Part shown: positions 17,601 through 20,600 of the stretch, one piece after another | Layout: every line of letters begins with the position of its first letter | How positions within the stretch are numbered: position 1 is the first letter of the stretch | Source of the DNA: a bacterium | GTDB taxonomy: Bacteria > Elusimicrobiota > JBDRMW01 > JBDROU01 | DNA length: 64,000 nt | Assembly (NCBI GenBank): GCA_043809745.1 | Contig: JBDROU010000079.1 | Span: 1,163 to 65,162 of the forward strand | Direction: 5' to 3' | Notes under the pieces: model-generated | What the model was told of the DNA's origin: nothing | The model's input: the letters and a program-made list of their open reading frames with translations, nothing else | Database searches by the model: none | Translations under genes and position numbers: made by a program

Positions 17601-20600
17601 ACCAGAGAAACAGTAACCTACGATCTGTTCGGGAAAATACAGACTGAAACAATAAGAAAATATTGGGGCAATGTTGCGGGAACGATGAACGGGGACTATA
17701 GCTCTACAATAACAGACAAAATTATCTATGATAACCAGGGAAGGCGCAAAACATTTGATCAAACAGAGAAAAAGTATAATATCGGCAATGTTTTATTAAG
17801 CACCGCCTTAACCCAAAGAACGCTTACGGAATATAATGTTTACGGCATTATGACCGGTAAAACGGAAATGGTTACTACTACAAAACTCAATGAAGTTACA
17901 ACTTACAAATTCACCACCACCAACATTCTTGGGAATGATAATTCAATGCCTTTGGCTTACACGGAAAAGAAAGAAAAATTATCTGATTTGGACAATGACG
18001 GCCAGAAAGATGATTGGTTCTTTGTGTATCATAAAGATGTCATTAACACGGTGTATGATACCGATGGGTTGATCAAGTCAGTTACTGAGAGGCGCGAGTG
18101 GGATAAGGAAAACAAAGGCGAACTGCCTATACCGATAGAAGGAGATGTAATTAAAGCGCCCGGGGTTCTGATTGGCATTTACGCAGTAGGATACTACACT
18201 CAAGCACTACTTGATGCCAGAATAAGAGTTCTGGAATCCCAAGGTTATAAGTGCTTAACACAATACAAAACAACTGAAACTATTATTCAAACTGGTGAGA
18301 GTGATTGGACGGAAATAAATGATGTGTATATGGCAACTTTCAGAGCTGACGGCCCACAAGGCAACCTCCCAGTTTATTTTTACGGCATTGATACTACGGC
18401 TGAGCAAGGCAACGCGTGGGTGTACTATACGGTAGATTACAAATATAACAATAAAGGTCAAATCTATACAGAGAATTATACGTGGAAAAGCGGATCGGCC
18501 TTTTATGCTGTCACCTCGCAGTCAACATATGACACTCGCGTTTGGGATCCAGATCCTAATGGATATGGTAGTTCTTGGAGTCGTTTTACAAACAATACAA
18601 ACACAGCTAAGGATGGGAATGGTTTTCAAATCTATGACGCAAACACAATACATAAATGGAATAGCACCGTTATCAATTCCACCGGCAGATGGCAGGTAGG
18701 AATAAAAGATCTTGGGACATTAGAGCCTACTTTAACAACAGTAGAAGCATACGACCCGTACGGCAACCGTGCAGATACTTCAACCCAAGGTGAATTTTTC
18801 GGCATGCAAAGCGAAACGGTTACTTACACATATAGAAGCGGTTTGTTTGGCGGCAAGAAAACGGGATCATATACGTTTTATTATATGGGTTCTCTCAGTA
18901 AGACCCAAACAACCAGTTCAACATTTGATGCTTTCGGCAGAGTTCTGACCTCTACCACTCACACGCATACAGTATCTGATTCTATCTATTATGACGGACA
19001 GCAGGTGGTTACCGATTCAGTATCCGCGATGACATATAATTACAGGGAAGGAGAATTTAAGGCCTACAGCGCCCATGAAACCTTAGATTATTATAAATTG
19101 GAAGCGCCCGTTAAAGTATATGCCGGTTATTCAAATACTTATGATTATGTTTACAACCCTGTTACCGGCGCTGTTGACGAGATAGATACAGTAAAGACAG
19201 AAGTAAAAACATACGAAGATCAATTCATAAACGAAGACTACTTCCCGTCAAGCAACAATGTTTTTGGTCAGATATTGTCTGCGGTAATCGTGGCAGTCCT
19301 TTCATATATTAACCCTCTATTCGGGGCTTTTGCAGGGCCAATCGTAAACTCAATTATAACCGGCAACGAATTAACCGCGGAAGGTTTTCTTATGCAGGTA
19401 GCTATAAATATTGTAAAGAATTATGCGATGGGTTTGATGCGTACCGAGGGATTTGAGTTTTCGCAAATGTATGATAAATTTGGTCAAGCGGCTGGCAAAT
19501 CCGTACCGAGTTTTTCTGAAATAATGTTTTCTGAGGATGTTGTATCCGCCCTTGTTTCATCTGTTGTTGAACAGGTCGCGCTGGCCCAGGGTGTGGATTC
19601 GCCGGTAGCGTCATTAATGGGCGCTGTTGCAGGCGCGTGCGTAGGCGGTATAACAATGAAAAACGGTACCCCCGGCATGCACTTCCAGTTACCTCCCCCG
19701 ACACAGCTATTAAAGGCTGCGGGTGATTTTATGCTCGCTAAAGCGTTCGAGCATGAAAGGGATAAAATTCAGGAAAGAGACGGTTCCTGGGTTAAGACCG
19801 GCAAGGATGTTAACAAAAAGCTTGAACGGTTAGGTTACCTCCAGCAGGCATTAAGCGCCCTTTTCAGTCTGGCGGTGGAATATGCCAGGATAGAGTATAA
19901 TAAAGGCGCTGAAAATACAAGCGGTACTGCTGGTAAGAAATTAAATATAGAAGTAGGAGAACAAACACAACCTGAACGGGGCGGAAGTCCGAGTGATCCT
20001 TCGCGCGGCATCGAAATTTCGGGACAGAATAAGCGGCCTACAAAATGGGTGCCTATTCCTTTCTGGAATCTGTTCAAAGGATTTTTCCAGTTTGTGAAAG
20101 ATGTGGGTTCCAGTGTTGCTAAAGCCGGAAAAAGTTATTCGGATACGGATTCAATCCCGCCGGTTGAAGCTACTCCTGCTGCAATGGAGAACGCAAAACC
20201 AGCGGAAACGGCAGGCCCAGATATTCTCGCTCAGGCTCCAACTTCAAAAGAAGATGCTAAAGCGGCTCTACCATCAGCATCTGACCGATCTTTTGATGAA
20301 AGGAGCAAAATGGACCAGAGTGGCGCTGCTTCTTTGCAGGAAGGTAATAAAAAAGATGATTCTGTTTCAGTTAAACCTGACGGTACTTATGCAAAAATGG
20401 ATGAAAATCGAAAGAACCCAGAATCAAACGCTGTTCCTGCTGCCGGTGCTAAGCAGGAGGGGCCAGCAGTCAAACCACCTCAGACGGTTAACACTCAAAC
20501 GACAAAGGCATCGCCTGGATCTGACAGCGCGCTTTACGGAACTAAGGAATCACCGCTCACTAAAACGGACGGTCTGGCTAATACTTTTAGTGCGGTAAAA

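Follow-up and report, generated by a model that had tools for sequence, protein, structure and literature searches.

A charge-poor helical module at the beta-to-helical junction of a giant bacterial protein, and its candidacy as a membrane anchor

Hardly any giant bacterial protein has been characterised, and reasoning about the function of such proteins has to start from their membrane topology. The question is raised sharply by a protein of more than 16,900 residues encoded in a 64,000-nt stretch of an Elusimicrobiota contig (JBDROU010000079.1; this whole stretch is called the window here). In this protein, a beta-repeat part of about 6,300 residues is followed by a helical part of about 10,000, and unusually apolar segments are found where the two join. 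Do these segments span a membrane? The junction, at ~280 residues, is compact and testable, and its topology would decide whether the beta and helical parts lie on the same side of a membrane or on opposite sides.

The frame of the giant open reading frame (ORF) is open from nt 3 of the window onwards to nt 50855, and the part ahead of nt 234 contains no stop. Residues are numbered from nt 234, the start of the listed ORF (234-50855; 16,873 aa), which makes nt 19260 codon 6343. The following features belong to the ORF and its N-terminal part:

3..50855, + strand: giant ORF, 5′ end beyond the window edge, with the protein N-terminus outside the window
246..17762, + strand (aa 5-5843): beta-meander array of at least 24 degenerate units of ~250 aa, with YDxxGR and YNxLGQ motifs, from the unit profile
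13593..13877, + strand (aa 4454-4548): Fascin/FRG1-like beta-trefoil inside the array (Pfam Fascin E=6.6e-9, FRG1 E=4.6e-9; PDB 7zoh E=2.1e-7)
17763..19238, + strand (aa 5844-6335): beta-rich, Tyr-rich non-repeat stretch with the last isolated YD-type motifs and no significant unit-profile match

The unit profile tiles the protein strongly over aa 5-5673 and weakly to aa 5843, and YD-type motifs number 65 in aa 1-6300 versus 16 in the remaining 10.5k residues. When one unit (aa 1483-1735) was modelled with AF2, using its paralogous units as the alignment, an all-antiparallel beta fold was obtained (pLDDT 89.1), for which the best Foldseek match in the PDB is the Rhs effector Tse15 (8uy4_A, E=4.5e-3). 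The array is net acidic (DE 16.4% vs KR 10.0%), and the helical parts are balanced. An initial reading of the letters (the sequence-only reading) had likened the arrangement to RHS/teneurin-type shells. The likeness stands as far as motif and antiparallel beta-meander fold are concerned, since the array has in common with RHS/YD-repeat proteins (Tse15, TcB-TcC, WapA) and teneurins the motif Y[DN]xxG[RQ][LIVM] on antiparallel beta hairpins. It fails at the level of Pfam and NCBIfam profiles, and nothing shows a closed shell. Pfam RHS_repeat (PF05593) does not match single units, aa 5480-5900 or aa 5901-6339 at E<=10, nor 5,000-aa pieces of the giant protein; the positive control, the canonical RHS protein L009, was found at E=6.6e-123 over 18 stretches. 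Likewise, NCBIfam YD-repeat models give no match at E<=1, there is no RHS-core match on aa 4001-6800, and canonical RHS proteins in turn show no match to the unit profile. The DPxGL autoproteolysis motif, already reported as missing, is indeed absent: neither DP.G[LW] nor P....DP.G occurs anywhere in the ORF. On these grounds, the idea that the beta region is a true RHS shell with its autoprotease was rejected.

There are further differences. In contrast to RHS/YD proteins, the array has longer hairpins, units of ~250 aa, no RHS core and no C-terminal toxin. A closed RHS cocoon takes about 1,000 aa, and the repeats here run to >5,700 aa, a length better suited to an extended tube or fibre. TM helices are N-terminal to the shell in teneurins and prePAAR-Rhs effectors, whereas the hydrophobic module discussed below is C-terminal to the array, and no teneurin-type EGF, NHL or Tox-GHH domain was found by Pfam in the giant ORF. 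Judged by sequence, then, the beta units bear YD-type motifs but fall outside the RHS family, and current RHS profiles miss the array unit, a beta-meander repeat with YD-type motifs.

The end of the array and the start of the module are not the same place. The sequence-only reading had set the apolar segments right where the YD-like region ends, and a switch from beta to helical sequence is indeed observed there, but the canonical array ends at about aa 5700-5850, ~490 aa before the module. The stretch between (aa 5844-6335) has 9.1% Tyr and 2.4% Pro. It holds the two YD-type strings quoted in that reading, AYDPYGNRADTS at aa 6172 and FDAFGRVLTSTTH at aa 6231, and a low-confidence AF2 model places strands in it up to about aa 6271.

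Is the array exported? Its sole relative found, the metagenomic sequence L069, matches the unit profile at E about 1e-103. It is distant (BLASTP E>=1e-3), and its sequence ends before any junction. Its N-terminus is a signal peptide, MKKQ...RHKLLLRIVASIVVVAFVFTQTGISRVYA, followed by YND, and no other hydrophobic segment is found in its 4,126 aa. Because this distant relative begins with a signal peptide, arrays of its type are probably exported, and so, probably, is the beta array studied here. Export of the giant protein itself is what we infer, its own N-terminus being outside the window.

Beyond the array, the features at and after the junction are:

19239..19367, + strand (aa 6336-6378): 43-residue charge-free run, VFGQILSAVIVAVLSYINPLFGAFAGPIVNS, containing helix H1 (aa 6343-6373, nt 19260-19352)
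19380..19439, + strand (aa 6383-6402): helix H2, moderately hydrophobic and weakly amphipathic (Eisenberg <H> <=0.46, muH 0.2-0.4, octanol -1.5)
19539..19658, + strand (aa 6436-6454 and 6457-6475): H3-turn-H4 hairpin, TopPred-like score 1.70, polar tip QGVDSP
19911..21623, + strand (aa 6560-7130): Pro/Glu/Lys/Ser-rich linker of ~570 aa, probably disordered, from composition and sequence reading
20040..20096, + strand (aa 6603-6621): aromatic amphipathic segment TKWVPIPFWNLFKGFFQFV, a candidate in-plane juxtamembrane helix from interfacial energy and muH
36588..37481, + strand (aa 12119-12416): second hydrophobic cluster, TopPred-like 1.47 and 1.70

Both apolar peptides that had first drawn attention to the junction lie in the frame of the giant ORF, within nt 19260-19670. 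The scarcity of charge described there is genuine: aa 6336-6378 is the longest run without D, E, K, R or H in the protein, and only 1 of 500 whole-protein shuffles reaches its length of 43 aa. Scores were read against TM-grade thresholds of 1.6 (KD19), 0.68 (Eisenberg) and 1.0 (TopPred-like). The H1 region has the protein's maximum KD-19 (1.96), its lowest Hessa-2005 sum (+2.8 kcal/mol) and a Wimley-White octanol sum of -6.9, and aa 6339-6378 is the sole stretch with Eisenberg <H>18 above 0.68 (0.72). The moment of this stretch is low (muH about 0.25). The check for amphipathicity thus found the main segments non-amphipathic, and since their hydrophobic moment is low, they are not surface helices. 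TopPred-like values on the GES scale, which over-scores Ala/Gly/Ser-rich helices, are 1.53 at aa 6347-6367 and 1.70 at aa 6456-6476. Over ~16,870 positions, module segments rank first on KD, Eisenberg, GES and Hessa and second on Wimley-White octanol. On these scales, the module has the apolar length, the low moment and the supra-threshold scores of generic alpha-helical membrane segments.

For calibration, seven flank proteins with Pfam or PADLOC matches were used (Macro x2, AbiEii, AbiEi, flavodoxin-like, MDH, UvdE). These soluble proteins stay at TopPred <=0.86, KD19 <=1.37 and Hessa >=5.8. The module exceeds them and matches obvious signal peptides, namely the N-terminal one of orf660 in the same window (KD 1.94, Hessa +3.8) and the L069 N-terminus (1.52). 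Less favourably, the Hessa sums of the module segments, which are crude and position-independent, are all positive (+2.8 to +4.6), that is, marginal for translocon-mediated insertion. The flanks of this first cluster are nearly devoid of K/R, with 0 K/R vs 4 D/E upstream and a net acidic H1-H3 loop. H3 has E and Q in mid-helix. H4 carries a glycine zipper, AxxxGxxxGxxxG, at aa 6459-6471, in a hairpin region with ten small-xxx-small motifs and two glycine-zipper matches. The aromatic segment at aa 6603-6621, 125 residues past H3-H4, has the most favourable Wimley-White interfacial value of the protein (-6.1, about 3.7 SD under the mean) with muH <=0.61. An AF2 single-sequence model of aa 6001-6580 reached a pLDDT of 34, too low to be of use for the module.

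The disordered linker described after the module is made probable by composition: aa 6560-7130 are Pro/Glu/Lys-rich, with 8.9% Pro, 29% charged, 25% hydrophobic and 1.1% Tyr residues. The figure of ~5,000 aa given for the helical portion holds between the hydrophobic clusters, but the total is about 9,700 aa. In this region, the second cluster proposed earlier is real. Its best segments are aa 12171-12193 (nt 36744-36812) and aa 12392-12412 (nt 37407-37469), and its TopPred-like scores (1.47 at aa 12173-12193, 1.70 at aa 12392-12412) are among the four highest of the protein. Past aa 12193, the flank RRGFLWALRTAGVKK contributes +5 K/R charges, and the loop has KR 17.2% vs DE 9.6% and 3.8% Trp. 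To judge from its sequence, cluster 2 obeys the positive-inside rule, is Trp-rich and looks even more membrane-like than cluster 1. The second-best interfacial segment of the protein (aa 12160-12174) adjoins it, and so the two most interface-seeking aromatic segments each adjoin one hydrophobic cluster. The clusters are not homologous to each other, and the idea that they are paralogous modules was rejected.

The reading that we favour, tentatively and with somewhat less than even confidence, is that the ~280-aa charge-poor helical module (aa 6336-6621) sits in the cytoplasmic membrane of the producer and serves a giant surface protein as stop-transfer anchor. Sec would export the RHS-like beta-meander array, at least 6,300 aa long and with the lectin-like trefoil inserted, until H1, a 31-residue uncharged helix, stops translocation. 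The H3-H4 glycine-zipper hairpin would pack on H1 within the bilayer, and the aromatic amphipathic helix at aa 6603-6621 would rest on the membrane surface. The linker would then tether the ~9,700-aa helical region, which may return to the membrane at aa 12119-12416. How many spans there are, which way they run and on which side the helical region would lie belong to this model rather than to the observations. The proposal that the apolar stretches are membrane spans is thus upheld in part: they are TM-grade on five simple hydropathy scales, but the marginal Hessa sums and K/R-poor flanks of cluster 1, together with the polar residues within H3, speak against an anchor.

Comparison with other giants is consistent with this anchor model. 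Of very long bacterial proteins, 94% are reported to have TM helices or a signal peptide (bioRxiv 10.64898/2026.06.07.730766), and in Dockerin-type giants the N-terminal part is reported to be exterior and TM-free, with TM anchors after it (bioRxiv 10.1101/2023.11.21.568195). In hydropathy, the giant ORF has no 'certain' segment in aa 1-6300 (TopPred-like maximum 0.95, cut-off 1.0) and TM-grade segments at aa 6343-6475 and 12119-12416. In common with the Dockerin- and Archaeovorin-type giants of Omnitrophota (described in the same two preprints), it has >10,000 aa with little sequence annotation, a long TM-free N-terminal part predicted to lie outside the cell, RHS-reminiscent antiparallel beta tubules and, downstream, TM segments (here TM-grade) and a presumed intracellular part. 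Unlike them, it has no SecA_DEAD, dockerin, TSP3, peptidase C39/S8 or CAZy-type domain in a Pfam scan, no sequence homologue of it was found, and its part past the anchor is ~10,000 aa of helical sequence.

In a somewhat unlikely alternative, membranes play no part, and the apolar stretches form the buried core of a soluble domain, a small globular bundle of helices capping the array. In favour of such a domain are the positive Hessa sums, the missing positive flanks at cluster 1, the polar residues E, Q and D inside H3-H4 or at its tip, and the Ala/Gly/Ser/Val-rich composition. Extreme values are also expected somewhere in ~16,900 residues, and the helical region elsewhere gives five further TopPred-like 'certain' calls, at 1.06-1.31, which come without other membrane signs and are probably false. 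Nevertheless, a charge-free run as long as that at H1 is exceptional among the shuffles, H1 is nearly without amphipathicity, unlike typical bundle helices, the scores are far above those of every soluble flank protein, and the aromatic segment with the strongest interfacial preference in the protein is close by.

Less probable still is a module for conditional insertion into the membrane of another cell, for pore formation or translocation. Here, the whole protein would be secreted or displayed, and H1 and the hairpin would be shielded until contact and then insert, as in pore-forming colicins and the diphtheria toxin T domain. The marginal Hessa values would permit passage through Sec without arrest, and the YD-type motifs and lectin-like trefoil of the array would suit contact with a target surface. 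With colicin and diphtheria T-type hairpins, the module has in common two ~19-residue helices, with an acidic tip (QGVDSP), and, with these and DUF6861 domains, an AxxxGxxxGxxxG zipper on a short hydrophobic helix. DUF6861 is a glycine-zipper membrane domain that is N-terminal in polymorphic toxins (Stv preprint, bioRxiv 10.1101/2022.08.23.504947), and Pfam gives a match to it on aa 6436-6476 only. However, this sole profile match is far under the cut-off (E=0.049; 13.5 bits vs 28), and the module differs from DUF6861 toxins in being internal and lacking a toxin domain. In addition, no toxin, colicin or translocation domain was detected anywhere in the giant protein, the ORF has no immunity-like or secretion-partner gene downstream, the ~10,000 aa that follow are far too large as delivered cargo, and cluster 2 resembles an ordinary positive-inside membrane domain.

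A bolder form of the membrane readings, which we regard as quite improbable, makes the module either the trans-membrane coupling point of an envelope-spanning machine built from a single polypeptide or a translocation pore, built into the protein, for delivery into prey upon contact. As a coupling point, it would use a glycine-zipper helix bundle to link an exported RHS-like beta tube of >6,300 aa with ~10,000 aa of helical apparatus in the cytoplasm or periplasm. In either form, this would be a family without detectable relatives of the module and with one distant relative of the array. Very improbable indeed is an artefactual fusion, in which faulty assembly or sequencing around nt 19,200-20,000 would have run a beta-repeat gene into a second gene, for a helical protein starting with a signal or TM region: composition, GC content and AT skew do shift at about 19-20 kb, and a hydrophobic stretch right past the domain boundary looks like an N-terminal signal anchor, but a single frame is uninterrupted over 50.6 kb, with no stop or frame change near the junction, H1 is preceded by acidic sequence without a start context, and the DNA of nt 18800-20300 holds only one 14-nt inverted repeat, with no direct repeat or terminator-like signal. 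A hidden feature on the opposite strand or at the RNA level of the module site was rejected too, given that inverted repeat as the sole one, short overlapping ORFs and no Rfam match.

No match was obtained in homologous-protein searches with aa 6101-6600, aa 12001-13500 or a 19-unit profile, nor when aa 5701-6600 were compared by phmmer with 1.84 billion representative proteins, and no related locus was found with aa 6231-6560 in genome and metagenome contigs. PDB sequence searches with all parts gave nothing beyond the trefoil match, the module having no match even at E<=10 and the array unit profile none. In viral contigs, two scans with the pattern GYN[NE]LGQx returned 119 loci, of which 0 match the unit profile. 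Among the flank proteins, MDH has its best match, at 46% identity, in an Anaerolineales MAG. A Pfam scan of the whole ORF, for which the last 10,000 aa were cut into 1,000-aa pieces, yielded noise only for the helical region. By sequence, the module is without a detectable homologue, and the known relatives of the array amount to one distant match. For orphans of this kind, the use of a protein's own paralogous units as the alignment, which here led to a confident AF2 model of the unit, is a trick that could be applied to other giant proteins.

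A single enormous reading frame runs along the + strand of the window, and the two peptides quoted as TM-like in the sequence-only reading are the exact translation of nt 19260-19670 in this frame (aa 6343-6479, with codons counted from nt 234); the YD-type strings reported nearby are found in the same protein. Since the frame is stop-free from nt 3 (window 3-233), the gene crosses the left window edge, its N-terminus, with or without a signal peptide, is missing, and its real length exceeds 16,873 aa. There is no other feature at nt 19260-19670: the remaining frames and the opposite strand hold only short ORFs, no Rfam match was obtained, and the one inverted repeat is 14 nt long. 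Around the hydrophobic module (cluster 1, aa 6336-6621), the protein is laid out as follows.

234-50855, + strand: giant ORF, 16,873 aa as listed by the ORF tool
aa 5 to about 5673, weakly to 5843: beta array, 24 or more units, each of about 250 aa, from tiling with an internal-repeat profile
aa 4454-4548 (window 13593-13877): fascin/FRG1-like beta-trefoil, an insert in the beta-repeat array, Pfam E about 5e-9
about 490 aa after the array and before the module: non-repeat cap, beta-rich and Tyr-rich
aa 6603-6621 (window 20040-20096), + strand: aromatic segment TKWVPIPFWNLFKGFFQFV, with the lowest Wimley-White interfacial energy (most interface-seeking) in the entire protein
571 aa after the module: linker, 8.9% Pro and 29% charged residues
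about 9,700 aa, to the protein end: helical region, of hydrophobic-plus-charged composition, presumably helical

The hydrophobicity of aa 6336-6378 is beyond chance. These 43 residues without D, E, K, R or H form the longest such run in the protein, and this length was reached in one of 500 whole-protein shuffles. The same stretch holds the Kyte-Doolittle maximum of the whole protein (1.96), its sole window above the Eisenberg threshold of 0.68 (0.72) and its lowest crude Hessa-2005 sum (+2.8 kcal/mol), with a Wimley-White octanol sum of -6.9. Amphipathicity, which had been raised as a point to check, is low there (hydrophobic moment about 0.25). In a TopPred-like GES scan, the top four peaks, namely 1.53 (aa 6347-6367), 1.70 (aa 6456-6476), 1.47 (aa 12173-12193) and 1.70 (aa 12392-12412), fall exactly in the two hydrophobic clusters singled out earlier, the second of which spans aa 12119-12416. 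For calibration, the seven flank proteins of the window with Pfam or PADLOC family matches gave TopPred-like values of at most 0.86, KD19 of at most 1.37 and Hessa sums of at least 5.8, and orf660, which has an evident N-terminal signal peptide, gave KD 1.94 and Hessa 3.8. Thus, on simple scales the segments rank with signal peptides or TM helices, and on the translocon scale they are marginal.

In the best-supported reading, although a tentative one, the module anchors the protein in the membrane of the cell that makes it. H1 (aa 6343-6373) would serve as the stop-transfer segment and keep the exported beta array at the cell surface. The H3-turn-H4 hairpin (aa 6436-6475), with its AxxxGxxxGxxxG glycine zipper and its polar QGVDSP tip, would pack next to H1. 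The aromatic segment, missed by the sequence-only reading, is strongly amphipathic and stands where the Pro-rich linker begins; it would form a helix that rests on the surface of the membrane. The helical region would then be tethered by the linker and would contact the membrane again at cluster 2. In the working topology, cluster 1 would supply three spans (N-out, C-in) and cluster 2 four (aa 12119-12141, 12171-12193, 12342-12359 and 12392-12412), which would place the bulk of the helical region in the cytoplasm. This arrangement is compatible with the charge pattern of cluster 2. That cluster has a +5 K/R flank, a 198-aa K/R-rich loop and a Trp content of 3.8%, and its best segment is directly abutted by aa 12160-12174, the second-lowest Wimley-White interfacial segment; no homology was found between the two clusters. 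A membrane anchor also agrees with published reports on very long bacterial proteins: in one catalogue, 94% have TM helices or a signal peptide (bioRxiv 10.64898/2026.06.07.730766). In Dockerin-type giants, the exterior N-terminal part is TM-free and is followed by TM anchors (bioRxiv 10.1101/2023.11.21.568195).

Nevertheless, the earlier proposal of membrane spans stands only in part, as the simple scales support it while Hessa sums above zero and the scarcity of K/R in the flanks of cluster 1 speak against an anchor, and the AF2 model of the module, at pLDDT 34, is too poor to use. That the apolar stretches are instead helices buried in the core of a soluble helical cap seems somewhat unlikely. 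Less probable still is a module that would insert conditionally into a target membrane or form a pore there. In its favor are energetics that are marginal on the translocon scale, a hairpin that resembles those of colicins and diphtheria toxin and has an acidic tip, and a sub-threshold match within the module to DUF6861, a membrane domain with a glycine zipper that occurs in polymorphic toxins (bioRxiv 10.1101/2022.08.23.504947). An assembly fusion of two genes, finally, would be a highly improbable origin for the junction.

The likeness to RHS/teneurin shells that had been drawn extends to the motif and fails at the level of the family. Copies of Y[DN]xxG[RQ][LIVM], the RHS/YD core motif, are enriched N-terminally (65 in aa 1-6300 versus 16 in the other 10.5k aa). 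By contrast, Pfam RHS_repeat did not match any beta unit even at E<=10, while the positive control L009, a canonical RHS protein from the same DNA pattern, gave E=6.6e-123. In addition, a profile of the repeat unit did not match canonical RHS proteins, NCBIfam gave no match for the repeats, and DPxGL is absent from the giant protein, as had been stated. At over 5,700 aa, the repeats also far exceed the needs of a closed RHS cocoon, and a closer parallel is the long beta tubules, reminiscent of RHS, that are described for Omnitrophota giant proteins (bioRxiv 10.1101/2023.11.21.568195). TM-like segments are to be expected within a giant protein; the novelty lies in their setting, an orphan giant protein with a YD-motif beta-meander repeat undetected by RHS profiles and a compact junction, which makes the topology question directly testable.

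Relatives are scarce. For the module and its neighbourhood, no relative was found in a word-indexed search of 5.8 billion clusters or by phmmer among 1.84 billion representatives, and the module had no match in GTDB genomes, JGI metagenomes or the PDB. Queries with aa 12001-13500 and the unit profile returned no homologue, and Pfam gave only noise over the 10,000 aa downstream of the module. A scan of metagenome contigs with a back-translated GYNNLGQV pattern yielded 70 loci, one of which, L069 (JGI contig Ga0105164_10001294), matches the unit profile (E about 1e-103) and is the only relative found; its unit matches number at least 25 and its YD/YN motifs 59.

L069 1793-14170: beta-repeat gene, >4,126 aa, which runs off the contig before any junction
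L069 374-1021: ECF-type sigma-70 factor, about 0.9 kb upstream of the beta-repeat gene

The L069 ORF follows a good ribosome-binding site and opens with MKKQDEIKNSIYIPWQQRHKLLLRIVASIVVVAFVFTQTGISRVYA/YND, a signal peptide of the classical kind or an anchor at the N-terminus (TopPred-like 1.52); its remaining 4,126 aa have no further hydrophobic segment above the 'certain' cut-off of 1.0. This signal peptide suggests that the beta arrays of the family are probably exported.

Within the giant protein, the beta array is net acidic (DE 16.4% versus KR 10.0%) and the helical parts are balanced. The trefoil resembles a 147-aa PDB chain, 7zoh, deposited as 'Glycoside hydrolase family 18' (E=2e-7), and may thus be a lectin or carbohydrate-binding insert. 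A large and recent intragenic duplication, at 45-66% identity, links aa 1-800 and aa 1411-2208 (window 234-2633 and 4464-6857); it is superimposed on older unit repeats, which share about 25-30% identity. The array is broken at aa ~5280-5480 (window ~16071-16673) by a non-repeat insert of some 200 aa, and the GC content dips here (0.364 over 16-18 kb) as well as at 40-42 kb (0.372). The helical region has internal repeats of 24-31% identity at aa 9537-10401 (window 28842-31436) and aa 16181-16860 (window 48774-50813), among them a C-terminal module that is duplicated.

Toward the right edge of the window, ordinary chromosomal genes are found at 61057-63589 (MDH/LDH, UvdE, tRNA-Ser(tga) and tRNA-His(gtg)). 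In a scan of GTDB species genomes, the MDH had a single match, an Anaerolineales MAG, at 46% identity, and thus the source lineage is poorly sampled. Just downstream of the giant ORF and mostly on the opposite strand, window 50944-60382 holds a cluster matching anti-phage defence and toxin-antitoxin families, including the following.

within 50944-60382: two paralogous Macro-domain (DarG-like) genes
within 50944-60382: AbiEi/AbiEii pair
within 50944-60382: 660-aa orphan with a signal peptide
within 50944-60382: 886-aa protein that combines an adenosine-deaminase domain (PADLOC CARF_ADA-type match) with a TM-like segment
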